Shown here: in pieces, positions 5,144 through 58,647 of the stretch
Numbering within the stretch: position 1 is the stretch's first letter
How the letters are laid out: the number at the start of each line of letters is the position of its first letter
NCBI GenBank assembly: GCA_964498245.1
Contig: CAZCGK010000002.1
Coordinates: 6,133-70,132, forward strand
Direction of reading: 5' to 3'
Length of the DNA: 64,000 nt
Source of the DNA: an uncultured archaeon
Lineage (GTDB): Archaea > Aenigmatarchaeota > Aenigmatarchaeia > QMZP01
Program-made: the position numbers and the translations under genes
Notes under the pieces: generated by a model
Database searches by the model: none
The model's input: the letters and a program-made list of their open reading frames with translations, nothing else
What the model was told of the DNA's origin: nothing

Positions 5144-6185
5144 ACCACTCCCTTATTTCTCTTTCAGGATTGAAATGCTTTTTAACAGTCATATATCCAT
5201 TCTGTCCAAGGGAATACATTTTTTCTCTGTTATTGTAAATTTCAATTAGTTTTTCATATATTTCTTCACCAGAAAACGGCTCAACAAGCAGACCGTTGTA
5301 TTCGTGTTTTATTATCTCTTCTGTTCCGCCAACCCTTGTGGCTATCACGGGAATGCCAAGAGACATCGCTTCAAGAACCGCATTGGGAAAACCCTCAAAC
5401 AGAGAGACCTGCACATAAACATCAAACATCTGCATCTCCTTCAAAACATCTTCATGTTTCATCACACCTTTTATTACAATTTTGTGTTTGATACCGGTTT
5501 TTTCCACGGCTTTTAAAAAATTAGAATTATCCGTTTTGCTTGCTCCGATCAGGACAAGTCTAGAATCCGGAATCTTGCTTGCAAATACTTTAAATGCATC
5601 CAAAAGATATTTCCAGCCTTTCAGCTTTCTTATATCACCTAAATATGAAACGTTTCCCACGATGAATTCTTTGCTTCTTTTTCTCTTACAATTTGGAATT
5701 TCAACGGAATTGTTTATAACTTCTGTTCGGGTTTTTCTTCCTGTAATTTTTTCAAATATCTTTAGATGCATTTTGCTAACAGAAACAATATATTTAGCAT
5801 TTTTTGCGACAATGTTACAAACATCAGAAATGGTGTTTAAAATATGGGAACCTCTCAAACCCACGATTGAGGGTTTGTCCAATAGGGAAGCTGCCTTTAC
5901 AGCAATCAAACCATCCGGCTCTATATCAAAACCGTGAATCACATCAAAATCCAATCTCTCATCAAGCCTTTTAATCACCTCAACAGCATTGTTTTCGAAA
6001 TGATTTAGTCTGTAGATAAAAACTCTATTGTTCTTCTGAAATTTGCTTCCACCCCTTCCGGTTATAATATGAAATTCGATTCCTTTGTATCTCTTTACCA
6101 TTCCGTTTACAATCCTTTTTAGCGATACGCTCCTTCCACCAAGTGGTTGCGTGCTGAAATCATTGGAGATGATGCATATTCTCAT
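5112..6185 (-). CDS. glycosyltransferase family 4 (GT-B, retaining)
   Basis: The C-terminal EGFPNAVLEAMSLGIPVIAT E-x7-E motif is typical of GT4. Confidence 0.8.
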   Translation of the reverse strand: MRICIISNDFSTQPLGGRSVSLKRIVNGMVKRYKGIEFHIITGRGGSKFQKNNRVFIYRLNHFENNAVEVIKRLDERLDFDVIHGFDIEPDGLIAVKAASLLDKPSIVGLRGSHILNTISDVCNIVAKNAKYIVSVSKMHLKIFEKITGRKTRTEVINNSVEIPNCKRKRSKEFIVGNVSYLGDIRKLKGWKYLLDAFKVFASKIPDSRLVLIGASKTDNSNFLKAVEKTGIKHKIVIKGVMKHEDVLKEMQMFDVYVQVSLFEGFPNAVLEAMSLGIPVIATRVGGTEEIIKHEYNGLLVEPFSGEEIYEKLIEIYNNREKMYSLGQNGYMTVKKHFNPEREIREWYGVYRKVSKI

Positions 6186-32864: not shown

Positions 32865-33797
32865 ATGAAAGCAAAATACTTTCTTCTAAAAAATATTAAA
32901 AAAAGAAGTGTGCTCATGCCCATAAAAATATTTAAAAATCCGGAAGATTTGAAGGTTCTTGCTAATCCTCTTGGATGGAAAATATTTCAGGAGATGAAAG
33001 TTCCTGCATGTCCTAAGGATGTGGCGAAAAAGTTGGGCATTCATGAGCAAAAAGTTTATTACTATATAAACAGATTCAGAGCTTCAGGACTTATAGAGGA
33101 AGTAAAAACCGAAGCAAGGCACGGAACAATTGCAAGATTTTACAAAGCAAAAAATCATGCGTTTGGTATGTGCATAGACGGAGGAGAAAGCATCAAAATA
33201 AATATACATCCTCCACAGCAATATAAACTTCTTGAACCTTTTATTGCTGAAGGTAGATTCAATGCAAAAATTATAGTGGGCTCACCCGATCCTCATGGTC
33301 CTTGGAAGGCAAGGGGAAGCGATTCCTGCTGTGCAATAGACTTTGCCCTTTTCATGGGCACATTCAGTGCTCATACAAAACTACCAAATTATATGCTGGA
33401 TGTTGAGATAAGAGAAAAGGATTTGAAAGATAACCTTGTGCTTTTTGGCGGTCCTGTTGTGAACATGATCACGAAAAAAATAAACAGCAAGTTACCGATA
33501 TACATAGATATAAAGGAAAATTTTGATATAAAATCCAAAATTTCGGGAAGGGTTTACAAGGACGATGAATGCGGATTCATTGCTATAATAGATAATCCTT
33601 GGAAGAAAGAGAAAAAAATTCTTGTGCTTGCGGGAAAAAGATTTCAGGGAACAAAATCCGCGGTTCTCGCATGGATAAAATATCTGGAAAAAATAATGGA
33701 AGGTAACAAATTTGATAAAAAAATCGTTGCAAAAGTTGTGAGAGGCTATGATATGGACGGTGACGGAGTTATAGACAGTGTGGATATTCTTGAGTAA
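32865..33797 (+). CDS. hypothetical protein with an N-terminal winged-helix-like segment
   Basis: An HTH-like region spans about residues 40-80, and the C-terminus has the Asp-rich DMDGDGVID motif. No close family is recognised. Confidence 0.4.
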   Translation: MKAKYFLLKNIKKRSVLMPIKIFKNPEDLKVLANPLGWKIFQEMKVPACPKDVAKKLGIHEQKVYYYINRFRASGLIEEVKTEARHGTIARFYKAKNHAFGMCIDGGESIKINIHPPQQYKLLEPFIAEGRFNAKIIVGSPDPHGPWKARGSDSCCAIDFALFMGTFSAHTKLPNYMLDVEIREKDLKDNLVLFGGPVVNMITKKINSKLPIYIDIKENFDIKSKISGRVYKDDECGFIAIIDNPWKKEKKILVLAGKRFQGTKSAVLAWIKYLEKIMEGNKFDKKIVAKVVRGYDMDGDGVIDSVDILE

Positions 33798-33835
33798 AAA
33801 TAAAAATTAATAGTTGTAAATTAAAGAAGACTAAT

Positions 33836-33975
33836 GCCGGTGTAGCTCAGCGGTTAGGTTGAAACCACGTGAAGAGCGCCAGACTCATAACATGAAGTGC
33901 AAAGGTTATGAGTGTTGAGGGTTTTAAACCCTGTGAGAAATCTGGAGGTCGCGGGTTCAAATCCCGCCACCGGCA
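33836..33975 (+). tRNA. tRNA-Met/Ile2 (anticodon CAT) with two introns (D-loop and 37/38)
   Basis: Manual fold: acceptor GCCGGTG/CACCGGC, D stem GCTC/GAGC interrupted by a 16-nt insert, anticodon stem CCAGA/TCTGG with loop CTCATA[about 50-nt intron]A, T arm GCGGG-TTCAAAT-CCCGC, discriminator A. G1-C72 argues for an elongator. Confidence 0.65.
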
Positions 33976-33995
33976 TCATTTCTATTCAGGTTGCT

Positions 33996-34274
33996 TTAAA
34001 ATACCCATGCAAAGATTTTATCGTTCATCACAACATAACTCATTTTGGTTTTAACATCGCTTCTCTCCAACATACATGTAATCTCAATACCCTGAGGTAT
34101 CCGTGCATACATTCCAGTATCGTATCCCTTTTCTCTGCAGAAATTTTTTACAAGCACATTAAGACTGTTATCAGATGAGAATATACCAGCATGAGATAAT
34201 ATTGCTATCACAAGGAATGCTGCAATCATTCCCATAACAAATCCTGCGATTAGAGAGATTTTTGTTTCTTCCAT
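33996..34274 (-). CDS. small membrane protein, hypothetical
   Basis: It has one TM helix. Confidence 0.3.
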   Translation of the reverse strand: MEETKISLIAGFVMGMIAAFLVIAILSHAGIFSSDNSLNVLVKNFCREKGYDTGMYARIPQGIEITCMLERSDVKTKMSYVVMNDKIFAWVF

Positions 34275-34299
34275 ATGGAAAAATAGAAGGGTAAGATTT

Positions 34300-34749
34300 T
34301 TAAGGGAATAGGTTACCTAAAAAACCTCCTAAATATCCCACAATAATCGGTGCGAAGAAAAGTGTAATTACATAGAAAATAAGGGCTACAGCTATTGAAT
34401 GAACAAGGCTTAAATCTCCAAAAAAGAGCTTTATAAACACAATCCACACAAGAAGTGGTAGAATAACATTCCCAAAGGGTATCGCAATAACAAACGGAAG
34501 AAGTAATCCCATAAAACCAAACATGTTAATCAGATTTACAATAAGCACCACCAAGAATGCATTTTTTACTGAGACGTTTTCTCCAAATTTATGACCGAAT
34601 ATTTCCAGAATTATCGATAGAATAATTCCTCCAATAAGGGTGGATAAAATAATATTTATACCCATGCTTATCCAGAATTCAAATGAATGTGCAGTTGCGA
34701 GGTCGTAAATGGCTTCTGGATTGAATAAAAAATTAAGGAACTCAACCAT
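34300..34749 (-). CDS. integral membrane protein (4 TM), hypothetical
   Basis: It is a polytopic hydrophobic ORF. Confidence 0.4.
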   Translation of the reverse strand: MVEFLNFLFNPEAIYDLATAHSFEFWISMGINIILSTLIGGIILSIILEIFGHKFGENVSVKNAFLVVLIVNLINMFGFMGLLLPFVIAIPFGNVILPLLVWIVFIKLFFGDLSLVHSIAVALIFYVITLFFAPIIVGYLGGFLGNLFP

Positions 34750-34806
34750 ATTTTATTTTTTGAATAAATAATATTAATAATTGAGAGTTGGGAGGGACTT
34801 CTGTCT

Positions 34807-36840
34807 ATGTACGAGGAAGCAAAAAACGAAATGACATCTTTGGATATAAGATTTCTTGTAAGAGAGCTTAGAAAAATAATTACTGGAGGATTTATAAGGA
34901 AAATCTATCAATACGGTGATTCGCGTTCAAAAAATCTGTTTTTTGAGATTTTTGTTCCAAATAAAGGTGCTTTCTGGCTTTACATGGATAAGAATAAAAT
35001 ATTTCTTACCAAGCACAAAAAACCCGCTCCTCAGGAACCTCCAAGTTTCTGCATGTTTCTCCGAAAACACCTGATGAACAAAAAAATAAAGAATATAACA
35101 CAGGCAGGGTTCGACAGGATAGTGGAAATAGAAACAGAGCAATGTGTTTTTGTTGCAGAGCTTTTCCACTCAGGCAATTTCATACTCTGCGACTCCTTGA
35201 AAAATATTATAATGCCTCTGGAGATTCAGAAATGGAAGGATAGAGAAATAAAACCAAAAATACCCTACAGATATCCTCCAAAACCATTAAATCCTTTCGC
35301 AATGGACATTGAAACCTTTATCTCTTCCTTTTTTAGAACAGAAAAAAAGCTTATAGCCTATCTTGCCTCGAGTCTGGGATTTGGTTCGGTTTATGCTCAG
35401 GAAATCTGCGCGCGGTGCGGTGTGGATGGAAATATACTTTGTAAAGAAATAAAGACCGATGATATTGTTGCAATATATAACACCATTCAGGAAATAGATA
35501 AAGAGTTTAGTCCATGTGTGTACGAGAATTTTGTCTCACCGTTTCCTCTAAAAATTTATGGAAATAGAGATGTGATTTTTAAGCCCAGTTTTTCAGAAGC
35601 ATTAGATGAATATTTTTCCAAACGTGAGGTGGAAACAGTAAAGGAGAGTATTGAGAAGCAAATAAAGGAAGAAAAGGAAAAACTTGAAAGAATAGTTAAA
35701 CAGCAAGATGAGGCATTAGAAAGATGGAAAAAAATAGAAAAGCAATCAAGGGAAATGGGAGATAGAATTTACAGTTATTATTCTGTTGTGGAAGGGGTTA
35801 TTGAGGGTATAAGAAAAGCAAAAGAATCCGGTCTTTCTTGGACCGAGATAAAGGAAAAGATATCGCAGGAATCCTCTCCCGAAGCGGAAGCCATAAAGGA
35901 AATAAGAGAAGGTGATAATGTTGTGGTGCTGAATTTGGGCGGTATTGATGTTGAAATAGATATTACAAAAACACCAGAAGAAAACGCTGCAAAATATTAT
36001 GAAGATGCTAAATGGGCAAAGAAGAAGCTTGAAGGTCTTGTGGAAGCGAAGAGTCTGCATGAGAAAAAGCTTGAGGAGACACAAGAAGAAAGGAAAAAAT
36101 TGGAAACATCAGATTTTGAAAAGTTTGTGTTTGCCAAAGAAAAGGAAAGCATTACAGTGCAGAAGTCTCAAGAACCTGAACAGAAAAAACCGAGAAGGAA
36201 ATGGTATGAAAAATTCAGATGGTTCCTTTCTTCAGATGGCTTTCTTGTTGTGGGCGGAAAGGATGCAAACCAGAATGAAATGCTGATTAAAAAACATACT
36301 GAGCCTAAAGACTTTGTATTTCATGCTGCTACCCATGGAGCAGCATTCGTGGTCATAAAAACTCAGGGCATGGAGGTTCCCGATGAAACGAAAAAAGAGG
36401 CAGCTGAATTTGCGGCCGCACATTCGAAAGCCTGGAGCATGGGTTTGGCAACCATTGATGTTTACTGTGTACGAAGAGAACAGGTTTCCAAGTCACCACC
36501 TTCAGGCGAGTATCTACCCAAAGGCTCGTTCATGATTTACGGAGAAAGAGAATGGTACAGAGATATCGAGCTCAAGCTTGCCATTGGAGTAAAAATAGAC
36601 AGAGAAAATAATACAGCCAAAGTACTTTCAGGTCCGGTAATGGCCATGAGAAAGAATTCCGATTATTTCATCACAATAAAACCGGGATTCAAAAAATCCC
36701 ATGAACTTGCAAGAACCATAAAAGACAAAATCCTCATACGTTCAAGCCCAGAGGATCGGTTTCTGATAGAGAAAATACCTCTGGATGAATTTCAGGTGGT
36801 TATACCTTCAGGCACGGGAGATATTGCAGAATATGTGTAA
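34807..36840 (+). CDS. NFACT-family RNA-binding protein (Rqc2/FbpA homolog, DUF814)
   Basis: It has the N-terminal LDIRFLVRELRKII NFACT-N motif, a central coiled coil, and a C-terminal DUF814-like region. Its length is about 677 aa. Confidence 0.8.
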   Translation: MYEEAKNEMTSLDIRFLVRELRKIITGGFIRKIYQYGDSRSKNLFFEIFVPNKGAFWLYMDKNKIFLTKHKKPAPQEPPSFCMFLRKHLMNKKIKNITQAGFDRIVEIETEQCVFVAELFHSGNFILCDSLKNIIMPLEIQKWKDREIKPKIPYRYPPKPLNPFAMDIETFISSFFRTEKKLIAYLASSLGFGSVYAQEICARCGVDGNILCKEIKTDDIVAIYNTIQEIDKEFSPCVYENFVSPFPLKIYGNRDVIFKPSFSEALDEYFSKREVETVKESIEKQIKEEKEKLERIVKQQDEALERWKKIEKQSREMGDRIYSYYSVVEGVIEGIRKAKESGLSWTEIKEKISQESSPEAEAIKEIREGDNVVVLNLGGIDVEIDITKTPEENAAKYYEDAKWAKKKLEGLVEAKSLHEKKLEETQEERKKLETSDFEKFVFAKEKESITVQKSQEPEQKKPRRKWYEKFRWFLSSDGFLVVGGKDANQNEMLIKKHTEPKDFVFHAATHGAAFVVIKTQGMEVPDETKKEAAEFAAAHSKAWSMGLATIDVYCVRREQVSKSPPSGEYLPKGSFMIYGEREWYRDIELKLAIGVKIDRENNTAKVLSGPVMAMRKNSDYFITIKPGFKKSHELARTIKDKILIRSSPEDRFLIEKIPLDEFQVVIPSGTGDIAEYV

Positions 36841-36939
36841 AATTTACATTTCAATAAAATTCCTTAAGTATATACCGATTCAACACGCGTTTCCTTTTTA
36901 ACCAAATATTTAAATAGGTCTAAAACCAATAATAAAAAG

Positions 36940-37416
36940 ATGCGTATGAAGATGAAAGCACAATCCGCAATGGAATATTTGATGACATATGGATGGGCGA
37001 TTTTAATTGTCATAATAGTGGCTGCAGCGCTTTATGCTTTAGGTGTTTTCAACCCAGCAACATACACAGGAAGCCAGGCAACAGGTTTTCCTAACCTAGG
37101 AGCTCCAAGAGAGTGGCAGTTTGACAGTGCATCAAACCAGCTAACAGTGATTCTCCAGAACCAGAAGGTAGGAAGACAGATCACAGTGAACAATGTTTCT
37201 GCAACCTGCGGATCAGGAGGATCTGCTGTTGAATCCTCTGAAACCGCAGCAGGAACTGTAACAATCTCAGCCGGAGGAACATCTCAATTTACCTTTACCT
37301 GTGATAACCTGAATGCAGGTGACCCCTATAGTTACGAAATCGTTGTAAAATACGTTCCCAGTGGCCTGACACTTGAACAGGTAGATAGAGGAAGAATAAC
37401 AGGAACCGCCCAATAA
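36940..37416 (+). CDS. archaeal type IV pilin-like protein (class III signal peptide, DUF361-like N-terminus)
   Basis: Its N-terminal sequence is KAQSAMEYLMTYGWAILIVIIV. Confidence 0.6.
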   Translation: MRMKMKAQSAMEYLMTYGWAILIVIIVAAALYALGVFNPATYTGSQATGFPNLGAPREWQFDSASNQLTVILQNQKVGRQITVNNVSATCGSGGSAVESSETAAGTVTISAGGTSQFTFTCDNLNAGDPYSYEIVVKYVPSGLTLEQVDRGRITGTAQ

Positions 37417-37464
37417 AAGCATAAAACACAAATATTTAATTTTTCGGTTTTTTTATTTTTATCT

Positions 37465-37806
37465 ATGTATAAACAAGTAATCGTAATACGGAAGGACCTT
37501 AAACTCAGTAAAGGAAAACTTGCAGCTCAAGCAGCCCACGCTTCTTTAGAAGCATATAGGCAATCAAGCAGAAGCATAAGAATTAAATGGGAAAGGGAAG
37601 GTTCAAAAAAGGTGATTTTAAAGGTTGGGAATCTGAAAGAGCTTATGCAGATATTCAGAAAAGCAAAAGCTTCTGGTTTGCCGTGCTGTATTATAAGAGA
37701 TGCAGGAAAAACGGAAGTAAGACCGGGAACGATAACAGCTTTGGGAATAGGCCCGTCGGAAGAGGAAAAAATCGATGCTGTTACAGGCCATTTAAAAATG
37801 CTATAA
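37465..37806 (+). CDS. pth2: peptidyl-tRNA hydrolase, PTH2 family
   Basis: It has the VIVIRKDLKLSKGKLAAQAAHAS signature. Confidence 0.85.
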   Translation: MYKQVIVIRKDLKLSKGKLAAQAAHASLEAYRQSSRSIRIKWEREGSKKVILKVGNLKELMQIFRKAKASGLPCCIIRDAGKTEVRPGTITALGIGPSEEEKIDAVTGHLKML

Positions 37807-37871
37807 AACAATAAAACTTTATAAACCTCTCTTCACTAACCTTTAAAATTCTCTTGCAAATAAGTGAAAGA

Positions 37872-38300
37872 ATGGATGAAAAGAAAACTCAACAAATAGA
37901 ACCAAAAGACCAAGAAAAAATTATTGTTTATCAGCTCTTGCAAAATCAACTCGAAGAGCTTAAGCAGCAAATGATAATGGTAGAGGAACGAATTGCAGGG
38001 TTAAACCTTGCAAGAGAAATTATCGATGAACTCGGGGGAAAAGAAAGAGAAACCCTCATACCTTTGGGGAGCGGATTTTATGCTCATGGCAAACTTATAG
38101 GAGAAAAAATAATAACAGATATTGGTGCAGGAGTTATGATAGAAAAGAGCAAGCTCCATGCAAAGGAAATAATCGAGAAAAGAAGAGATGAACTCAAAGA
38201 GGTAAAAGAAAAACTTCAGGCTAATATTAATGAAGTTATGGAAAACATTAACGAAATTCTTCCTGAAATACAGAAAATAGCAGAGAAATTGAATAAGTAA
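37872..38300 (+). CDS. pfdA: prefoldin alpha subunit-like coiled-coil chaperone
   Basis: It is about 142 aa with two long coiled coils around a central beta-hairpin region. Confidence 0.6.
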   Translation: MDEKKTQQIEPKDQEKIIVYQLLQNQLEELKQQMIMVEERIAGLNLAREIIDELGGKERETLIPLGSGFYAHGKLIGEKIITDIGAGVMIEKSKLHAKEIIEKRRDELKEVKEKLQANINEVMENINEILPEIQKIAEKLNK

Positions 38301-38302
38301 AA

Positions 38303-38640
38303 TCCGTGGTCGGTGAGTGTTCCCGAATTTTAAAGGATTACGCTCCTTGAGCTTTGGTGGGAACACCGAGACCGACCACGACTCTCTCGTTCTCATCTCC
38401 GGGAAGTGTATTTAATTTTCTCTTTACACCCCCCGGAGCGAGAATGATCTGGGGTTGTTATAAAGGGTTCGAGCCGAGAGAGAATGACGCTCAGGGTCGT
38501 CCGTTAGAACCAGAACGGAGTCATCCCCACTTATGAACATGTAATAATGGGGAGTACCTTAAATCCATACACTCCTTTGAGCCAAAGAACCAGACTTCTC
38601 CAACAATTACTCAAAGGAGTTCTCATACTGAATATATTTT
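38303..38640. ncRNA. GC-rich structured RNA candidate (identity unresolved: SRP RNA, RNase P RNA or other)
   Basis: It is a local GC-rich island of about 330 nt with no ORF. A 19-bp near-perfect stem (GTGGTCGGTGAGTGTTCCC / GGGAACACCGAGACCGACCAC) and further hairpins are visible. Confidence 0.3.
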
Positions 38641-38692
38641 ATTTTTTACTATTTAAAAAACTTTCTGAACGATATTTGTCGAATTTTTAGAA

Positions 38693-39028
38693 TCAGTGAT
38701 GCTCGTATTTCTCTTTCATCTCTATATCTATCTTTACTCCTTCGGGAATGGGAATTCTCACAACCTGTTTTAAAGCTCTTTCATTGGAGCCTATATCTAT
38801 AACCCTCCTGTGAATTCTCATTTCCCATCTATCCCATGTAGCATTTCCGTGTCCTGTACCGTCACCGCAGGGTGTTTTCAGTGTGTAAACCCTGAGCTTT
38901 TTTGTAGGAAGCGGAACAGGACCTCTAACAGAAATACCGTATTTTTTTGCAATTTCCTTTATCTGTCTGCAAATTTCATCCAGCTCTTTATAATTCCTTC
39001 CCGCGAGCTTGATTCTTGCAAATTCCAT
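38693..39028 (-). CDS. rps10: 30S ribosomal protein S10 (uS10)
   Basis: It has the ARIKL...GPVPLPTK...WDRWEMRIHRR signature. Confidence 0.9.
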   Translation of the reverse strand: MEFARIKLAGRNYKELDEICRQIKEIAKKYGISVRGPVPLPTKKLRVYTLKTPCGDGTGHGNATWDRWEMRIHRRVIDIGSNERALKQVVRIPIPEGVKIDIEMKEKYEHH

Positions 39029-39061
39029 ATTATTCACCTTTGTTTTCTCTTTAAATATTTT

Positions 39062-39499
39062 TTATCTCTTGCTCCTTTGCTTGTATCTTCTTGATCCCTG
39101 TGAAGATCTGGGAGGTTTGTGGGGTTCGGTTCTTCTAGGATCGTAGACTATTAGATTTCTATCATATTCTATAAATTTCTTTTTCACATTTTCTCCCAGG
39201 ATTTCCACCAGACCCCTGGCTATGGCCTGTCTGGCAGCTTCAGCTTGACCCATTATACCTCCACCAATGACGTTTACCTTTATATCATATCCTTTCCATC
39301 CATCCCCTGCAAGCACAAGAGGCTCATTTATTAAAAGTCTTACCATGTCAGGTTTTACGATTTCAAGAGGAATTGAATTTATTTTTACCCTTCCAGAACC
39401 CGGTCTAAATGTTGCTCTGGCAACTGCTCTTTTCCTTTTACCTGTGGTGAATACGATTTTCTTTTCAACACCCTTCTCTTTTTTCATACTTCTCCCCAT
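39062..39499 (-). CDS. rps9: 30S ribosomal protein S9 (uS9)
   Basis: It has the GGGIMGQAEAARQAIARGL motif and a basic C-terminal tail. Confidence 0.9.
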   Translation of the reverse strand: MGRSMKKEKGVEKKIVFTTGKRKRAVARATFRPGSGRVKINSIPLEIVKPDMVRLLINEPLVLAGDGWKGYDIKVNVIGGGIMGQAEAARQAIARGLVEILGENVKKKFIEYDRNLIVYDPRRTEPHKPPRSSQGSRRYKQRSKR

Positions 39500-39500
39500 A

Positions 39501-39920
39501 TCACCATGTTTTCTTCACACCAAGACTTTCAGATATTTTCTCTAAGGTTATATATTTACATTTTAATTTATTTTCAGCTTCTTCAATTTTTTTTGGTGTA
39601 CCAGAAAGACCTTCAGGAATAGAAACATATACCTTTAATCTTTTCAGAGCTTCTCTTCCCCTGGATTTCTTTGGAAGCATCCCCTTTACAACCCTTTTAA
39701 CTATATCATCAGGTCTTCTCGGATAAAAAGGTCCGTGATACGGATCACCTCTGCTTATCTTTTCACGGAACACCTGTATGTTGTAACCGGGGTTTCCTGA
39801 AACCACAGCCTTTTCAGCGTTTATAACAATTACCTTTTTACCCTTCAAAAGCTCTTTTGCTATTCTTGAGGCCATCCTTCCCAGCACATGATTCTCAGCA
39901 TCTATTATAAGCTCTTCCAT
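39501..39920 (-). CDS. rpl13: 50S ribosomal protein L13 (uL13)
   Basis: It has the IIDAENHVLGRMASRIAK N-terminus. Confidence 0.9.
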   Translation of the reverse strand: MEELIIDAENHVLGRMASRIAKELLKGKKVIVINAEKAVVSGNPGYNIQVFREKISRGDPYHGPFYPRRPDDIVKRVVKGMLPKKSRGREALKRLKVYVSIPEGLSGTPKKIEEAENKLKCKYITLEKISESLGVKKTW

Positions 39921-39925
39921 ACCTA

Positions 39926-40285
39926 TTACCCTATTATTCTTATTTTTTCTCTCCCCTTGTAATTCTCAACAAATTCCCAAATACTCATACATTTTCCACC
40001 AGCGTTTTTTATTTTTTCTCTTGCTGATTTTGAAAATTTATCCGCCACAATTGTTATGTTTTTTGTTATTTCTCCTCCGCCAAGGACCACTCCGGGAACA
40101 ATCACGATCTCATCCGGTTTTGCATACTTTTCAATACGATAAAGATTTACTTCATGTTGTTTTCTTCTAGGCCTGTTTAAAGCCCTTGCTACAGCTTTCC
40201 ATACAGGCATGTCTTCCTCTATTCCTTTTCTATACAGGTTCTTTATCAACTCTGCTTTTACAGGGTTTTTGCTTCTGATTTTCAT
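39926..40285 (-). CDS. rpl18e: 50S ribosomal protein L18e (eL18)
   Basis: It is a basic protein of about 119 aa with the PVWKAVA...RPRR signature, in the conserved L18e-L13-S9 order. Confidence 0.85.
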   Translation of the reverse strand: MKIRSKNPVKAELIKNLYRKGIEEDMPVWKAVARALNRPRRKQHEVNLYRIEKYAKPDEIVIVPGVVLGGGEITKNITIVADKFSKSAREKIKNAGGKCMSIWEFVENYKGREKIRIIG

Positions 40286-40341
40286 GGTTTCACTCTTTTG
40301 AATATTACATCTTTCTGATGATTAGAATATTTAAATATTAA

Positions 40342-40561
40342 TGCGGGGGGCCGGATTTTCGGATTCAAGCTTCTTTTCCAAAGAAGGCTTGTTTTCGAAC
40401 CGGCGAAGGCACTTCCCACTCTTCACACACTTCCATATTTTAGGAAGTGTTAGCTCCTGTGAAGAGTTCTAAGCCACAGGATTTCTCAATCATCATCCTC
40501 TATCAGCTCTCAAGCTTTTCATTCTTGAGTCCTGCCCCTTTAACCACTCGGGCACCCCCGC
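40342..40561 (-). tRNA. tRNA-Leu (anticodon CAA) with three insertions (37/38, variable arm, 59/60)
   Basis: Manual fold: acceptor GCGGGGG/CCCCCGC, 3-bp D stem, anticodon stem CAGGA/TCCTG with loop CTCAAG[intron]A, V-arm GGC...[insert]...GCC, T arm GCCGG-TTCGAA[intron]T-CCGGC, discriminator A. Confidence 0.55.
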
Positions 40562-40574
40562 ATCTAAAGGAAAA

Positions 40575-40720
40575 TGCGGAGGGGAGGATTCTCTTAAAGG
40601 GAGGACATTCTCCCTTAATTCGAACCCCCGAAGGCAATTCTCACCCTCCGTGAGACATCGAAAGGGTTCTAAGCCACAGGGTCCTAAGCCCTGCCCCTTT
40701 GACCGCTCGGGCACCTCCGC
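40575..40720 (-). tRNA. tRNA-Leu (anticodon TAG) with insertions in the variable arm and at 59/60
   Basis: Manual fold: acceptor GCGGAGG/CCTCCGC, anticodon arm CAGGG-CTTAGGA-CCCTG, V-arm TGGCTTAGAAC[insert]GCCTTC, T arm GGGGG-TTCGAA[intron]T-CCTCC, discriminator A. Confidence 0.55.
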
Positions 40721-40732
40721 ATTCCCAAGATA

Positions 40733-40920
40733 TGCTCCCGGCGGGAGTTTCATCCACTACAGGCAAAACCTGCTTGAATTTTGAACCCGCGTCACAGGCT
40801 TTCTTTGATCTTTCATAGACCTTACGGTCTCAACTCTTTCGAGTGATATCTCGAAAGGCCTGTATCCATAGTCACCACTCCTCACGCGGATGTGGTTTGA
40901 CCGGGCTAGACGACGGGAGC
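40733..40920 (-). tRNA. tRNA-Glu-like (anticodon TTC) gene with at least two to three insertions; D-arm not cleanly resolved
   Basis: Manual fold: acceptor GCTCCCG/CGGGAGC, anticodon stem CAGGC/GCCTG with loop CTTTCG[intron]A, T arm GCGGG-TTCAAA[intron]T-CCCGC, discriminator A. The D region has an extra insert. Confidence 0.4.
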
Positions 40921-40962
40921 ATATCCCAACATCCCAGAATATGTATGTACACATTCTGGGAG

Positions 40963-41035
40963 TGGGCCGGGCAGGATTCGAACCTGCGACCCCCGCCACG
41001 TCAAGGCGGTGTCATAACCACTAGACCACCGGCCC
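40963..41035 (-). tRNA. tRNA-Val (anticodon GAC)
   Basis: It folds as a canonical 73-nt cloverleaf with no intron and no encoded CCA. Confidence 0.85.
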
Positions 41036-41101
41036 ATTGGGAAGTTTTAGTTTTATCATATTTATAAATATAGTGATCTGCTCTTAAAGAAGTAAAATTC
41101 A

Positions 41102-41174
41102 TGGGTCGGCCCGGATTCGAACCGGGGATCTCCGCCGTGTGAAGGCGGCGTCCTAACCGCTAGACCACCAACCC
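41102..41174 (-). tRNA. tRNA-Val (anticodon CAC)
   Basis: It folds as a canonical 73-nt cloverleaf with no intron. Confidence 0.85.
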
Positions 41175-41239
41175 TCTCAAAATTGAATTTATAATCAGCA
41201 TTTATTAAGCTTTTGTGATATTTCCTGAGATATCAAAAG

Positions 41240-41407
41240 CGCCGGGGGCAGGATTTTCTATTCCTCGCAGAGACAGTGAGATGAACATAATGAATAGCTT
41301 ATTCTAATTCTCTGCGAAGATTCGAACCTGCACGGGGCAAAGCCCCACGTGGTTTCTTGCAGGAAATTAACTCGAGCCACGCGCGTTAGCCGTTCCGCCA
41401 CCCCGGC
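41240..41407 (-). tRNA. tRNA-Ser (anticodon CGA) with two introns (37/38 and 59/60)
   Basis: Manual fold: acceptor GCCGGGG/CCCCGGC, 3-bp D stem, anticodon stem CGTGG/CCACG with loop CTCGAG[intron], long V-arm GGGGCTTTGCCCC, T arm GCAGG-TTCGAA[about 65-nt intron]T-CCTGC, discriminator G. Confidence 0.6.
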
Positions 41408-41480
41408 AATTGTTACACTGCTTCTCTATATTCCATTGAAAAAGAAATATTTATAAAACAACCTCTGTTAATTTTTCACC

Positions 41481-41846
41481 ATGTTTGAGGAATATTGCAA
41501 TAAGTGCGGAGAGTGCTGCAAAAACCAGAAAGGAATTCTTGTAACCCCCGAAGATCTGGAATTATGGAAGGCGCTAGGCAGGAATGATATAATAGATGCT
41601 GTGGAGGAGATTGAAGAAGATTATTATACAGAAAGCGGAATACTTTTGTTCAGAAAGGGAGAGATGATTTTACCTACAGATAAGAACGAGAGATGTATAT
41701 TTTTAACAAAGGATAATAAATGCTCAATATACAATATCAGACCTAAATTATGCTGGATGTTTCCATACAGAGGAGACGGATTAATGATTTATCCTAAGTC
41801 CTGCAATGTTATAAAACATCTCTACTTTACAGAGGACGGATTATGA
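41481..41846 (+). CDS. YkgJ-family putative zinc/iron-sulfur cluster protein (CxxCxxCC)
   Basis: It has the N-terminal CNKCGECC motif and further conserved Cys residues. Confidence 0.55.
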   Translation: MFEEYCNKCGECCKNQKGILVTPEDLELWKALGRNDIIDAVEEIEEDYYTESGILLFRKGEMILPTDKNERCIFLTKDNKCSIYNIRPKLCWMFPYRGDGLMIYPKSCNVIKHLYFTEDGL

Positions 41847-42046
41847 TAGCGATCGAGGTATCGTATCGGGGAAAAAAGAAAAATCTCAAGATAAAAAACA
41901 CCTCTACTATAGAAGAGGTCCTCGAAAACTTGGGAATAAATCGAGAGGCGGTGATAGTAAGCAAAAACGGAGAGATCGTCCCCGAAGATGAAAGAATAAA
42001 AAATGGAGATAAATTAAAAATCATGGATGTGGTTTCAGGAGGATAA
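41843..42046 (+). CDS. ThiS/MoaD-like ubiquitin-fold sulfur carrier (SAMP-like) ending in Gly-Gly
   Basis: It is a 67-aa beta-grasp-sized protein with C-terminus VVSGG. It sits directly upstream of a PP-loop thiolase and overlaps the stop of the preceding gene. Confidence 0.7.
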   Translation: MIAIEVSYRGKKKNLKIKNTSTIEEVLENLGINREAVIVSKNGEIVPEDERIKNGDKLKIMDVVSGG

Positions 42047-56398: not shown

Positions 56399-57682
56399 AT
56401 GCTGGATATAAAACTTATTCGTGAAAGGCCGGAGGTTGTGAGAGAAAATCTCATCAAGAGGAATGAAAAAGAAAAGCTTGAATGGATCGATAAAATTATA
56501 GAATATGATAAGAAGTGGAGAGAATCCCTTCAAAAACTAGAATCCCTTCGGCACAGAAGAAACATTATCACAGAGAAAATAGCGAAATTCAAAAAGGAAG
56601 GAAAAGATACAAGCAGCCTGATAAAAGAGGTTAAAAGCATCCCAGAGAAAATAAAAGATCTGGAAGAAAAAACCCAGAAATACAGAGAAATGATAGATTT
56701 TTATCTTAAAAATCTTCCCAACCTGCTTCATGAATCTGTTCCCTTGGGTAAGGACGAAAATGATAATATTGAAATAAGAAGATGGGGGAGGCCGCCTAAA
56801 TTCGATTTCAAACCCAAAAACCACCTTGAAATTGCAGAAGGACTGGGTCTGATAGATGCAGAGAGAGCAGCAAAGGTCTCTGGATCCAAATTTTTCTATA
56901 TCAAGGGTGAACTCGTTCTTTTGGATATTGCAATTCAGAAATACGCCATAGATTTCCTAATAAAAAAAGGTTTTACACCAGTGGAACCTCCATTCATGCT
57001 GAGAAGGAAACCATACGAAGGTGTGACCGATCTGAAGGATTTTGAAAATGTGATGTACAAAATAGAAAACGAAGACCTTTATCTCATAGCTACATCTGAA
57101 CATCCTATAGCAGCTATGTTTATGAACGAGGTTCTGGAAAAGGATAAGCTACCTCTGAAATTCTGCGGAGTTTCTCCCTGCTTCAGGAAAGAGGCAGGTT
57201 CTCATGGTAAGTACACAAAAGGTCTTTTCAGAATGCATCAGTTCAACAAGATAGAGCAATTTGTTTTCTGTCTTCCAGAAGAAAGCTGGAAAATTCACGA
57301 AGAATTGCAGAAGAATTCCGAAGAGCTTTATCAGGGTTTGGGTTTGCATTACCGTGTGGTAAACGTTTGTACAGGAGATATAGGTCCTATAGCAGCAAAG
57401 AAATACGATATAGAGGTATGGATGGCTGATGGAAAGTTCAGAGAGAGCGGAAGCAATTCCAATTGCACCGACTATCAGGCAAGAAGACTGAATATACGAT
57501 ACCGGGAAAAGGAAGGTCTTCCACCCGCAGGTTTTGTCCACACCCTTAACAACACCGCCCTGGCCACAAGCAGAATAATGGTTGCAATTCTTGAACAGTA
57601 TCAGCAGGAAGATGGATCTGTGGTAATACCCAAGGTTTTAAGACCGTATATGAATGGAATGGATGTTATATCAAAATGGTGA
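56399..57682 (+). CDS. serS: seryl-tRNA synthetase
   Basis: It has an N-terminal coiled-coil arm and class II motifs. Its length is 427 aa. Confidence 0.9.
   Translation: MLDIKLIRERPEVVRENLIKRNEKEKLEWIDKIIEYDKKWRESLQKLESLRHRRNIITEKIAKFKKEGKDTSSLIKEVKSIPEKIKDLEEKTQKYREMIDFYLKNLPNLLHESVPLGKDENDNIEIRRWGRPPKFDFKPKNHLEIAEGLGLIDAERAAKVSGSKFFYIKGELVLLDIAIQKYAIDFLIKKGFTPVEPPFMLRRKPYEGVTDLKDFENVMYKIENEDLYLIATSEHPIAAMFMNEVLEKDKLPLKFCGVSPCFRKEAGSHGKYTKGLFRMHQFNKIEQFVFCLPEESWKIHEELQKNSEELYQGLGLHYRVVNVCTGDIGPIAAKKYDIEVWMADGKFRESGSNSNCTDYQARRLNIRYREKEGLPPAGFVHTLNNTALATSRIMVAILEQYQQEDGSVVIPKVLRPYMNGMDVISKW
57513..57676 (+). repeat. direct repeat copy 1 (164 bp; 3' end of serS)
   Basis: It is identical to 58413-58576. 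Confidence 0.9.
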
Positions 57683-57689
57683 AGAAGTG

Positions 57690-58037
57690 TTACTCTGTTC
57701 CTTCTTCTTTTACGATTTTCTGAAGTTTTTCTTTTAGCGATGGTATATCCTTCATTATTGTATCCCAAACAGCCTCTATATCCACCCCAAAATATGCATG
57801 TATCAATTTATCTCTCATCCCAGCTATTTGTCTCCATGGTATATTTGAATGTTTATTTCTGAAACCTGTTGAAAGATTTTTGGTGGCTTCCCCGATTATC
57901 TCTATTTCCCTTATCACCGCATCTTGGAGCATACGATTATTCCTAAACTCATCATAATCTCTATCTCTCAAATATTCTTCTATTAAATTAATAGCGTCCA
58001 ACATGTGCCTAAGAAATACCAGGTCATCTTTCCTCAT
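57690..58037 (-). CDS. hepT: HepT-family (DUF86) toxin, RNase of a HepT/MNT toxin-antitoxin pair
   Basis: It has the Rx4HxY motif RDKLIHAYF. Confidence 0.8.
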   Translation of the reverse strand: MRKDDLVFLRHMLDAINLIEEYLRDRDYDEFRNNRMLQDAVIREIEIIGEATKNLSTGFRNKHSNIPWRQIAGMRDKLIHAYFGVDIEAVWDTIMKDIPSLKEKLQKIVKEEGTE

Positions 58038-58390: not shown

Positions 58391-58579
<189 letters not shown>

Positions 58580-58647
58580 TGAGGATTTTTTACCAATAAT
58601 TGCTTTTCTAATTCAAAGTTCATAACAAGTTATCCAAGCAGCCATTT

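Follow-up and report, generated by a model that had tools for sequence, protein, structure and literature searches.

A predicted dual RNA of Aenigmatarchaeota that joins a small open reading frame to a putative L7Ae-type kink-turn

A GC-rich stretch between the prefoldin and S10 genes in 64,000 nucleotides of DNA from an uncultured member of the Aenigmatarchaeota (the whole stretch analysed, here called the window) appears to be a separate RNA gene on the minus strand, which is also the strand of S10. We put the odds on this reading at slightly better than even (about 0.55). The gene would have its own TATA promoter and would specify an RNA of about 330 nt, the representative of a new family in Aenigmatarchaeota, consisting of a small ORF, a kink-turn and a 3′ domain and acting as an RNP that couples translation to protein binding. 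The gene is assigned to the minus strand because its own TATA box, the ORF and the kink-turn are read on that strand only. Neither Rfam 15 nor the searchable literature contains the family. Positions of the individual features are collected in Table 1.

Table 1. Predicted features of the element and its flanking genes, numbered from the first nucleotide of the window.
Feature	Position	Strand	Basis
Prefoldin gene	37872-38300	+	
Predicted transcript, ~331 nt, from ~3 nt 5′ of the ATG to the U-tract	38299..38629	-	ends inferred from TATA position, ATG and U-tract
Short U-tract AUUUU directly after D3; possible archaeal termination site	38299..38303	-	sequence only
D3, 3′ domain: outer helix CGUGGUCGGU..GGUGUUCCC / GGGAACAC..ACCGACCACG around M3	38305..38380	-	
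M3 hairpin AAGGA-GCGUAA-UCCUU, best-conserved 3′ motif	38333..38348	-	
P4, CUCUCUCG (38482-38475) / CGAGAGAG (38389-38382), enclosing P5 (38444-38425 / 38410-38390)	38382..38482	-	predicted, MFE and centroid
Single-stranded motif AUAACAAC, preceded by the conserved block (G)CUCGAAC	38454..38461	-	sequence
Kink-turn hairpin: C-stem GGG/CCC, 3-nt bulge GAU, tandem G.A/A.G, C.C at 3b.3n, NC stem UCCG/CGGA	38494..38528	-	sequence, covariation
Kink-turn strands	bulged 38528-38516, non-bulged 38503-38494	-	
P2 hairpin: CCCCAUU (38552-38546) / AGUGGGG (38531-38525)	38525..38552	-	MFE
Small ORF, 31 codons + UAA (MRTPLSNCWRSLVLWLKGVYGFKVLPIITCS), leaderless or with a leader of at most about 9 nt	38531..38626	-	sequence comparison
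P1 hairpin within the ORF: ACUCCUUUGAG(U)/(A)CUCAAAGGAGU and a 7-bp apical stem	38571..38620	-	MFE, covariation
TATA-box-like element UUUUUUAAAUA with A-rich, BRE-like bases upstream	38650..38660	-	sequence, predicted promoter
S10 gene	38693-39037	-	

The region differs from its flanks in base composition (GC 0.50–0.51 at 38300–38499, against 0.27 at 38200–38299 and 0.25 at 38600–38699), and both strands fold more stably than dinucleotide-shuffled sequences: −116.5 kcal/mol for the plus strand (z −5.35) and −121.5 kcal/mol for the minus strand (z −5.58). The 331-nt transcript model reaches −120.8 kcal/mol (z −4.82), a stability equalled by none of 100 shuffles. A preliminary description of this DNA, which saw here a GC-rich, structured, ORF-free candidate ncRNA, was correct about the composition, the structure (z about −5 on both strands) and the location between prefoldin and S10, which are convergent. 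Its 19-bp stem lies where it was placed (38305–38324 / 38359–38380; 10 bp, an internal loop and 9 bp) and is the outer helix of D3, and its hairpin ACTCCTTTGAG/CTCAAAGGAGT was recovered at 38571–38581 / 38610–38620. The strand was left unassigned in that description; promoter, ORF and kink-turn consensus are legible on the minus strand only. The region holds no credible ORF of at least 40 aa, and the claim that it is ORF-free fails on a minus-strand ORF of 31 codons (38626–38531) whose frame is kept in every homolog. What survives of the ncRNA proposal is a conserved structured RNA gene; the non-coding label is not supported, as the 5′ third is a small ORF with a conserved frame. The element is better described as a dual RNA, with a coding frame and a structure, bearing an L7Ae-type kink-turn.

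Homologs occur at about 45 Aenigmatarchaeota loci and share one architecture: a TATA box, an ATG, an ORF of 27–56 codons, a kink-turn hairpin 2–3 nt past the stop codon, and a 3′ helix around M3. An nhmmer search with the window alone matches the S10-downstream gaps of L024, L014 and L027; profiles of families A and B find each other (E 1e-10 to 1e-6); and the family-A profile, built without the window, matches it at 38534–38468 (E 8e-5) and 38358–38326 (E 3e-4). Homology of the predicted transcript with family B and with L113 extends over its length. Every full-length member found in the DNA pattern scan sits between S10 and prefoldin. In other clades the elements lie near oapABC, away from S10 and prefoldin, and one copy was retrieved independently of the pattern scan; the GTPase homologs of oapABC are labelled Aenigmatarchaeota. 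The S10–prefoldin gap, whose length runs from about 0 to 2.3 kb, is occupied by unrelated genes in some genomes, and at many loci the element is absent from it. Only the kink-turn hairpin is conserved across clades. A single covariance model of all subfamilies was dropped on account of large variable insertions, and tests were made domain by domain instead. The OapB and OapC neighbours of group C were considered as OLE-associated proteins and rejected: the name is a coincidence, and Pfam defines the archaeal proteins as origin-associated. The neighbouring genes (ribosomal proteins; oapABC elsewhere) may hint at a translation- or ribosome-related housekeeping role, which is not in itself evidence of function.

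The promoter and the ORF keep a fixed layout. In nearly all full members, a distance of 132–158 nt separates the kink-turn from an upstream TTT[AT]TA[AT][AG] box, which the divergent groups and L174 have as well; its 5′ edge is 29–39 nt from the ATG in about 40 copies. At the 3′ end, the U-tract, which overlaps the prefoldin stop codon on the opposite strand, could conceivably serve as an archaeal termination site; U-tracts are inconsistent among the relatives. A scan for bacterial sigma-70 promoters and intrinsic terminators was empty, bacterial models being uninformative for an archaeon. Each of the 25 complete A/B/W copies has an ORF of 31–41 codons that begins at the first ATG past the TATA box and stops 2–3 nt before GGGAUGA, and 15 divergent copies have the same layout with 27–56 codons. 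Frame 0 is free of stops in 40/40 copies, while stops occur in frame 1 in 40/40 and in frame 2 in 32/40; the joint shuffle probability of the open frame is about 1e-23, with an estimate of roughly 1e-11 for the 13 A/B/W clusters. All indels within the ORF, across about 25 sequence clusters, preserve the frame. Read-through of the stop codon, with coding continued into the kink-turn hairpin, was rejected because the hairpin lengths vary out of frame.

The peptide itself has few marks of constraint. Minimum changes at codon positions 1/2/3 are 31/32/35 in family A, 36/24/36 in B and 27/35/42 in C; third positions are not enriched, and this even spread could also stem from the overlapping constraint of RNA structure and does not by itself prove that the peptide is dispensable. 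Shared patches consist of an N-terminal M-x-T/S-P-L in the window, L113, L174 and group C, and F-P-I / T-W-E near the C-terminus. The 31-aa peptide belongs to no Pfam family and has no word-sharing homolog among 5.8 billion proteins; an exhaustive phmmer search with it returned only two multi-stretch matches, both in long proteins and by their look low-complexity noise. These sequence comparisons indicate that the frame is maintained and the peptide weakly constrained. As the frame is kept while the amino-acid sequence drifts, selection probably keeps the act of translation (ribosome transit or occupancy), not the peptide. The predicted transcript carries a selected small ORF on a structured RNA, as a dual-function small RNA does.

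Covariation is seen in the kink-turn C-stem, in the helices inside the ORF and in the 3′ helix. Between the window and its closest relative, L113, P1 differs by two compensatory pair changes, both of which are synonymous in the ORF, and in the homologous helix of family A two pairs are changed on both sides and 98.8% of cells are paired. The 3′ strand of P2 shares bases with both the stop codon and the G's that the C-stem of the kink-turn requires. P2 is 97% paired in family A, and the upstream partner equivalent to it tracks sequence changes in group C, group B and the window-like copies. For the family-A helices taken together, 95.4% of cells are paired, compared to 31–51% with slid partners, and six pairs are changed on both sides (0/500 shuffles).

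The kink-turn starts 3 nt after the stop codon of the window copy and fits the simple K-turn consensus; judged by sequence it is a K-turn structural motif, with sheared-pair geometry predicted. It agrees with the L7Ae-bound K-turn of the l7ae 5′ UTR (PMC5539422) in the GAU bulge, the two G.A pairs and the 4-bp stem, and by this analogy it is a putative L7Ae site. The window C-stem is just 3 bp long (GGG/CCC), and the 3b.3n position is C.C, not U.U. The core K-turn bases of the metagenome set were fixed by the search pattern, and the unbiased evidence comes from the flanking pairs and the L174/L175 copy: in the extension of the C-stem, x1–y1 is paired in 31/33 copies with four pair types (0/2000 shuffles) and x3–y3 in 25/33 (1/2000), and L174/L175 yielded a kink-turn variant without use of the search pattern. 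In family A, both the C-stem, with one compensatory change, and the NC stem are 100% paired.

In the 3′ part, the AUAACAAC motif is found at equivalent positions in the window, L113, L022, L024, L025 and L027. P4 and P5 of the window copy are without covariation support, and the corresponding region is a duplicated M3 domain in L113 and different in family B. Each member, when folded alone, forms a long helix around M3, and the sequences of these helices are unrelated. Measured against shuffled flanks, the D3 duplex energy has a z of −7.5 in the window and of −3 to −7.5 in 13 of 16 lineages. M3 has the form NGGA-[GCGUAA / GCGUUA / ACGUAA / GCGCAA]-UCCN′ in all A/B/W members, and its closing pair, read directly, is A-U in the window, U-A in family A and G-C in family B, L140 and L161.

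The segment next to the stop codon can pair upstream, within the ORF, or downstream, within the kink-turn, and since it has two alternative partners, the folding models suggest a switch linking translation to L7Ae binding. The two conformers of the window differ by 5.6 kcal/mol. In family A there is no overlap between P2 proper and the C-stem, and two cells of the upstream alternative are broken; support for the switch is therefore unequal among the subfamilies. In the proposed mechanism, the RNA would form an RNP with L7Ae and couple translation to protein binding. The G-rich segment beside the stop codon would alternate between P2, formed with a segment of the ORF, and the C-stem, formed past the second kink-turn strand. 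A ribosome on the last ~10 codons would free this segment for kink-turn formation, the kink-turn would have to be melted by the ribosome to reach the stop codon, and L7Ae binding would open P2. We propose only tentatively, as a conjecture that could well prove wrong, that this is a new class of archaeal RNP RNA, with a leaderless micro-ORF as an integral module, both structural and regulatory, in which ribosome transit and L7Ae toggle mutually exclusive folds, so that translational activity (or free L7Ae) would be reported by the RNA or coupled to the activity of its 3′ domain.

Comparison with known RNAs separates the element from the established classes. The preliminary description had weighed SRP RNA, RNase P RNA or a different RNA, and the last of these prevailed, there being no match to SRP or RNase P models: in searches of Rfam 15, the window copy has no match that reaches the gathering score, and even with lax filters and a limit of E ≤ 10 no match appears for it, for the family-A copies L005 and L013 or for the group-C-type copy L174. 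RNase P RNAs have a universal core in which CR-I and CR-V form P4, and their 5′ and 3′ ends are paired (P1/P2). RNase P RNA was rejected: RNaseP_arch, RNaseP-T and their relatives give no covariance-model match in the window copy, L005, L013 or L174; when the window and 175 loci were searched for the strings, CR-I (GGAAAGUCC) and CR-V (ACAGAA..GGCUUA) were absent from every copy of the element; and 5′–3′ terminal pairing is absent from the MFE and centroid structures, which consist of tandem local domains, as do those of the relatives. SRP RNA is marked by a helix 8 with a GNAR tetraloop and a GGAAGGGAGCA-type motif; SRP (7S) RNA was rejected as there is no Archaea_SRP match and the helix-8 string is absent from the element.

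The smaller guide RNAs fit no better. Box C/D sRNAs, of about 50–70 nt, have boxes C (RUGAUGA) and D (CUGA), usually C′ and D′, and guides of 10–12 nt. This class was rejected, since the K-turn strands GGGGAUGACUCC / CGGACGACC include no CUGA D box; the loop of the K-turn hairpin is variable and not guide-like, and the Rfam C/D matches are at noise level only (L005/L013, L174). In H/ACA sRNAs, a hairpin with a K-turn or K-loop in its upper stem carries a pseudouridylation pocket and is followed on the 3′ side by an ANA box. This class was rejected, as no ACA/ANA box follows either the K-turn hairpin (where CCCUGAGCG is next) or D3 (GGAUUUU), and there is no Rfam match. OLE RNA was rejected for lack of an Rfam match, and a tmRNA or tRNA-like element was rejected because ARAGORN sees only two tRNA-Val genes in 33000–42000. 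The idea that a second GC-rich stretch, at ~40290–40960, is a large companion ncRNA was rejected, since it reads as intron-containing tRNA genes. A repeat, MITE or mobile element was rejected: there is no repeat family and no second copy in the 64-kb window, each locus has one copy without terminal repeats, and synteny is strict within clades. A phage or viral origin was rejected since blastn finds no match to phage records; 16 pattern matches on viral contigs fail the family profile, their number being about that estimated by chance.

The element might instead be an ordinary leaderless mRNA, in which the 31-aa micro-protein is the effector and the rest is a structured 3′ UTR with an L7Ae-bound kink-turn that stabilises or regulates it. 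The frame conserved in all 40 copies, the patches shared at both ends of the peptide and the existence of archaeal sRNAs encoding small proteins (PMC11456600; bioRxiv 10.1101/2025.10.28.685009) speak for such an mRNA. However, third positions are not enriched, the peptide is barely alignable between subfamilies and has no homolog or Pfam family, the patches coincide with paired RNA in which P-to-S changes (CC to UU) keep the pairing, and the 3′ part makes up two-thirds of the transcript and is better conserved than the peptide. We consider this reading unlikely, though still a serious contender. The strong structure and the covariation running through the ORF, together with the weak amino-acid constraint, could also be taken to indicate a non-coding L7Ae RNP RNA (a scaffold or guide) in which the open frame is idle or a side effect, for example of ribosome loading at a 5′ AUG that protects the RNA. 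Such an RNA is improbable in our judgement: the AUG at the predicted start, the 40/40 copies without an in-frame stop and the frame-preserving indels would be very unlikely without selection, and the stop codon keeps a fixed place beside the kink-turn in all groups.

The element might be a housekeeping RNA, RNase P RNA or SRP RNA, so divergent that the Rfam models miss it. Its size of 330–560 nt, apparent single copy and kink-turn, as in P12 of archaeal RNase P RNA, would fit; Rpp29 is present in Aenigmatarchaeota loci and L7Ae is encoded too; an RPR must exist because DPANN archaea lack the protein-only HARP (PMC6380272); and a string search of 1.45 Mb of fetched loci finds no canonical RNase P or SRP RNA. 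Yet four copies searched with lax filters and a limit of E ≤ 10 match neither RNase P nor SRP models, and the element has local hairpins without terminal pairing and without a CR-I/CR-V or helix-8 signature. Moreover, what is conserved across clades is a kink-turn hairpin and no catalytic core, and a conserved translated frame is foreign to both RNAs, making this identity highly improbable. We give equally little credence to the idea that there is no gene at all and that the region is a 3′ UTR or terminator of prefoldin on the plus strand, a read-through tail of the S10 operon on the minus strand, or an insertion or mobile relic. The convergent genes, the gap as a hot spot of variation and a D3 hairpin that forms on the plus strand too speak for it; the TATA box at a fixed distance, the strand-specific motifs, the presence in clades away from S10 and prefoldin, the one copy per locus without terminal repeats, the lack of similarity to phage records and the viral pattern matches that fail the profile speak against it. 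The prefoldin 3′ UTR or terminator, which the preliminary description had named as the outcome that would overturn its candidate, is not supported: the element lies on the opposite strand behind a TATA box of its own, and copies in other clades have no prefoldin nearby.

Read as a dual RNA, the element resembles several known systems in part. Archaeal RNase P RNA, whose P12 and P16 K-turns are bound by L7Ae, is similar in size range, K-turn, housekeeping-like single copy and ribosomal-protein neighbourhoods; unlike it, the element lacks the P4/CR-I/CR-V core and the terminal P1 pairing and has a conserved reading frame. Bacterial tmRNA is likewise a structured RNA with a short frame, for which being translated matters above the peptide sequence, but the element has no tRNA-like domain (ARAGORN) and its frame begins with an AUG at the 5′ end, compared to the internal resume codon of tmRNA; tmRNA is not known from archaea. 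L7Ae binds a K-turn with a GAU bulge in the l7ae 5′ UTR and thereby regulates its own expression (Daume et al. 2017, PMC5539422). Both have a simple K-turn beside a translation signal, built from a GAU bulge, two G.A pairs and an NC stem of ~4 bp, and by analogy the element is expected to link L7Ae occupancy with translation. The l7ae K-turn lies in a 5′ UTR and masks the Shine-Dalgarno sequence, whereas that of the element is 3 nt downstream of a stop codon; the element is also leaderless, with a drifting frame of 27–56 codons, a large conserved 3′ domain and no linkage to l7ae. OLE RNA of Bacillota has a K-turn bound by YbxF/OapC, and binding displaces the alternative helix P6 (PMC9723947). 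OLE is likewise large, ornate and confined to one lineage, and its K-turn, the binding site of an L7Ae-family protein, competes with a helix; it is, however, bacterial, ~600 nt long, non-coding and membrane-associated via OapA, and it has no sequence or structure match to the element. The dual-function RNAs SgrS/SgrT, RNAIII/hld, SR1/SR1P, AzuCR and the Methanosarcina mazei spRNAs (PMC12612679, PMC8915982, bioRxiv 10.1101/2025.10.28.685009) similarly combine a small ORF and conserved structure in a short transcript. Their peptide is usually a conserved product and their RNA acts by base-pairing; in the element, by contrast, constraint on the peptide is weak, the ORF itself forms helices, the RNA part looks like an RNP domain that binds protein through a K-turn, and no complementarity to a target was identified.

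The design is unusual in that an open frame with a drifting peptide is itself folded and ends 3 nt before a kink-turn that competes with an ORF helix. If the proposed mechanism is true, it would be a translation-gated RNA switch without a described counterpart, and a concrete case of coupling between translation and RNP assembly in archaea. The element also adds a new kind of predicted natural L7Ae target. The GC-rich “spacers” of AT-rich archaeal genomes can conceal small ORFs overlooked by gene callers. The motif set (TATA box, ATG, frame, stop codon plus 3 nt plus GGGAUGAUUCC...GGAUGACC, and the M3 hairpin) could be converted to a covariance model for annotation. In small DPANN genomes, such as those of the Aenigmatarchaeota, a conserved structured RNA of ~330–560 nt at fixed sites is likely to be important.

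The region between the S10 and prefoldin genes contains a predicted minus-strand RNA gene (the element) and, as the preliminary description had it, is flanked by these two genes, which are convergent. Positions 38300–38640 have ∼50% G+C compared to 25–27% in the immediate flanks, and the fold is far stronger than dinucleotide shuffles on both strands (z of −5.35 and −5.58), in agreement with the earlier view of a GC-rich, structured region whose named stems are indeed present where they had been placed. The region had also been called ORF-free, an otherwise real observation to which a small minus-strand ORF is the sole exception.

Coordinates of the element, its features and the adjacent genes in the window
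Feature	Position	Strand	Details
Prefoldin gene	37872–38300	+	Convergent neighbour on one side
Element	38299–38629	−	Predicted RNA gene, ∼331 nt
K-turn	38528–38494	−	(GU)GGG-GAU-GA-CUCCG ... CGGAC-GA-CCC
Small ORF	38626–38531	−	31 codons plus UAA
TATA box	38660–38650	−	UUUUUUAAAUA
Ribosomal protein S10 gene	38693–39037	−	Convergent neighbour on the other side

A search with the S10 protein returned 80 loci with up to 91% identity, nearly all labelled Aenigmatarchaeota (a DPANN phylum), in which the genes keep the order S10 → ← prefoldin ← Pth. Between S10 and prefoldin lies a gap of about 4 to 2305 nt, which in 12 of the 80 loci holds conserved non-coding sequence of two subfamilies, A and B. 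The window sequence alone matches the gaps of relatives by nhmmer, profiles A and B find each other (E of 1e-10 to 1e-6), and the window, which did not contribute to profile A, is matched by it at 38534–38468 and 38358–38326. On sequence comparison, A, B and the window copy are judged to be one family. A metagenome scan with an exact pattern for the most conserved hairpin identified 73 stretches, 39 of which match a family profile; about 20 are full-length, all located between S10 and prefoldin. The same pattern gave 16 hits in viral contigs, approximately the number estimated by chance, with none matching the profile. Divergent copies, among them group C, lie near a GTPase/OapB/OapC operon and a conserved protein of 125–130 residues. 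The Oap proteins are origin-associated according to Pfam; a link to the like-named OLE-associated proteins was rejected, as the two are unrelated by Pfam definition. These neighbourhoods, and the mostly Aenigmatarchaeota labels of the GTPase homologs at 72–79% identity, therefore place the family in several clades of the phylum and at two or more syntenic sites. The element is missing from many S10-prefoldin loci, considering that gap only.

The gap itself is an insertion hot spot, occupied by unrelated genes in some genomes (L011, L018, L022, L029, L036 and L038); two ORFs in L036 resemble, by eye only, a MazF/PemK-type toxin and an AbrB-type antitoxin. Downstream of the RNA, on the same strand, family A has a small Cys-rich ORF (e.g. 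...FTDCSKCGNYALCMKDNYIKCPLLNL; L005, 2882–3091; L013, about 5155–5370), as does L002; the window and family B lack it. An Rfam RT-16 RNA, a reverse-transcriptase-associated motif, lies ∼5 kb upstream of S10 in one Aenigmatarchaeota MAG (L027, 825–1037, plus strand; 60.9 bits). Three named Aenigmatarchaeota MAGs (L170, L171 and L173) encode the RNase P protein Rpp29 within the ribosomal-protein operon, directly followed by the origin-associated oapABC genes.

The first ATG opens an ORF of 31–41 codons, ending 2–3 nt before GGGAUGA, in all 25 complete copies of A, B and window-like (W) type. The same layout, with a TATA-like box, an ATG and 27–56 codons, is seen in 15 divergent copies matched by the hairpin only, where the stop lies exactly 3 nt before GGGAUGA. 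Frame 0 is free of stops in 40/40 copies, while stops occur in frame 1 in 40/40 and in frame 2 in 32/40. The joint shuffle probability of the open frame is about 1e-23 over 25 sequence clusters and, by our own estimate, roughly 1e-11 for the 13 A/B/W clusters, where ORFs were read forward, beginning at the first ATG. ORF length differences are all frame-preserving, minimum substitutions differ little between codon positions 1/2/3 (31/32/35 for A, 36/24/36 for B and 27/35/42 for C), and the peptides are barely alignable between subfamilies. This combination argues for a reading frame that is maintained and for weak constraint, at most, on the amino-acid sequence. Searches with the peptide yielded neither a Pfam family nor a credible homolog.

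A TTT[AT]TA[AT][AG] box is located 132–158 nt upstream of the hairpin on the S10 strand in all copies, with 29–39 nt between its 5′ edge and the first ATG (two scans combined). Archaeal TATA boxes are centred about 26–27 nt upstream of the start site. Given this spacing, we infer a leaderless or near-leaderless transcript, with the ATG at the start or within about 9 nt. In family A (L005, L007, L012, L013 and L014), a conserved non-coding block (UCUGUCCCUGAAAAACUCCCAUUUAGUGAAUCG...) about 20–80 nt upstream of the box may serve as a regulatory site or mark where another RNA ends.

The sequence directly after the stop codon fits a simple K-turn, which reads GUUGG-GAU-GA-UUCCG ... CGGAU-GA-CCAAC in family A. 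The search pattern fixed the core bases and left the flanking C-stem positions free, and these free positions covary: x1–y1 pairs in 31/33 copies, using four pair types (0/2000 shuffles as good), and x3–y3 in 25/33 (1/2000). A copy found through its neighbouring protein, and not through the pattern (L174/L175), has a TATA-like box, an ORF of 31 codons and a variant K-turn, UAG-UUU-GGGAUGAUUCUG...CGGAGGACCAAC. In Sulfolobus, L7Ae binds a K-turn in the l7ae 5′-UTR, which the element resembles in its GAU bulge, two G.A pairs and 4-bp stem (PMC5539422); by analogy, the K-turn of the element is probably bound by L7Ae. Group C loci (L103, L110, L126, L129, L141, L155 and L166) have an invariant 5′ end, AUGUCAUCCC, that is complementary to each of the two K-turn strands, GGGAUGA and GGAUGAC, and is paired with the second by RNAalifold, which could add a clade-specific layer of start-codon/K-turn competition.

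Across an 11-sequence alignment of family A from the ATG through the K-turn, the proposed ORF-internal hairpins P1 and P2, the C-stem and the NC-stem have 95.4% of cells paired, compared to 31–51% with the partners slid, and six pairs changed on both sides (0/500 shuffles). P1 of the window copy and that of L113, its closest relative, are separated by two compensatory changes, each synonymous in the ORF. A segment that includes the stop codon, immediately 5′ of the K-turn bulge, has two complementary partners: a stretch farther upstream within the ORF, with which it forms P2, and a nearly identical stretch beyond the second K-turn strand, with which it forms the C-stem. The upstream, middle and downstream segments are CCCCAUU, AGUGGGG and CCC in the window, CCCAAUCAU, AUGAUUGGG and CCAAUC in L161 (L140, GUGAUUGGG), and UUCGGACUAG, UUAGUUCGGG and CCGAA in group C. 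The upstream partner changes with the middle segment in group C (UCCACACUAG/UUAGUGUGGG; CGCACUGG/UUAGUGCG), and the downstream partner likewise tracks x1. Family A has perfect downstream pairing and an upstream alternative with two broken cells. Protein-free, the P2 form of the window copy is predicted at −120.8 kcal/mol versus −115.2 kcal/mol for the K-turn-constrained form, a gap of 5.6. A precedent for such competition is OLE RNA, in which an alternative helix gives way to a K-turn when an L7Ae-like protein binds (PMC9723947).

All members, each folded separately, have a common 3′ domain architecture, with a long outer helix of unrelated sequence around the hairpin NGGA-GCGUAA-UCCN′ (M3) and optional extra branches. 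Compared with shuffled controls, 13/16 lineages have a stronger outer helix (z −3 to −7.5); that of the window (z −7.5) is the 19-bp stem noticed originally. Helices P4 and P5, which occupy the centre of the window copy, are energy predictions only and are not conserved in L113 or family B. L113 (Ga0116200_10054369) has two copies of the M3 domain (AAGCCCAAGGAGCGUAAUCCUUCAGA twice, about 100–330 nt after the K-turn), and since the first replaces P5 of the window, this represents a domain duplication within the RNA.

Other parts of the window contain tRNA-like stretches. A second GC-rich, ORF-poor stretch (40290–40960 and 41240–41405, minus strand) reads as several tRNA genes broken up by at least one intron, and the position of some introns is apparently not the canonical one in the anticodon loop (e.g. 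GCGGGGGUGCCCGAGUGGUUAAAGGGGCAGGACUCAAG...CCGGUUCGAA...UCCGGCCCCCCGCA); standard callers miss them, with a weak Rfam tRNA match at 40627–40720 (22 bits) and none by ARAGORN. A tRNA gene at 33836–33975 (plus strand; Rfam, 55.6 bits) has two insertions relative to the tRNA model, of 19 nt (D-loop) and 52 nt (anticodon loop), presumably introns. A 181-nt direct repeat, 97% identical, occurs at 57513–57693 and 58413–58593 (900-nt spacing).

The size of the region had suggested SRP or RNase P RNA. At gathering score, Rfam 15 recognises only three tRNAs in the whole window, and lax filters (E ≤ 10) gave only noise across 38200–38750. Homologous copies in relatives likewise have no credible Rfam match, and ARAGORN finds no tRNA- or tmRNA-like element. 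Both candidates are considered very unlikely: their covariance models do not match the element, which lacks the CR-I/CR-V and helix-8 signatures and terminal pairing, is conserved across clades only in the K-turn hairpin and, unlike either RNA, has a conserved reading frame. Since these archaea encode Rpp29, and since DPANN archaea lack the protein-only HARP enzyme (PMC6380272), their genomes must contain an RNase P RNA; neither a canonical RNase P RNA nor a canonical SRP RNA was found in the 1.45 Mb of fetched loci. Membership of the box C/D, H/ACA, tmRNA, OLE or mobile-element classes fails in each case on a defining feature. The main rival explanation is that the micro-protein is the effector and the remainder of the RNA a regulatory 3′ UTR.

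We consider the element most likely to be a translation-coupled L7Ae RNP, with the conserved 3′ domain as the effector. The sequence comparisons show homology and synteny, a conserved frame, and covariation that extends over the K-turn C-stem, the helices inside the ORF and the 3′ helix. The RNA would be transcribed from its own promoter, ribosomes would translate the 5′ frame, and L7Ae would occupy the K-turn. Translation and L7Ae binding may be coupled, as a ribosome at the stop codon would cover the K-turn with its footprint and as the K-turn has a strand in common with P2. Neither Rfam 15 nor the searchable literature describes such an element; dual-function RNAs and L7Ae/K-turn elements are known kinds, and their combination and geometry here are new.
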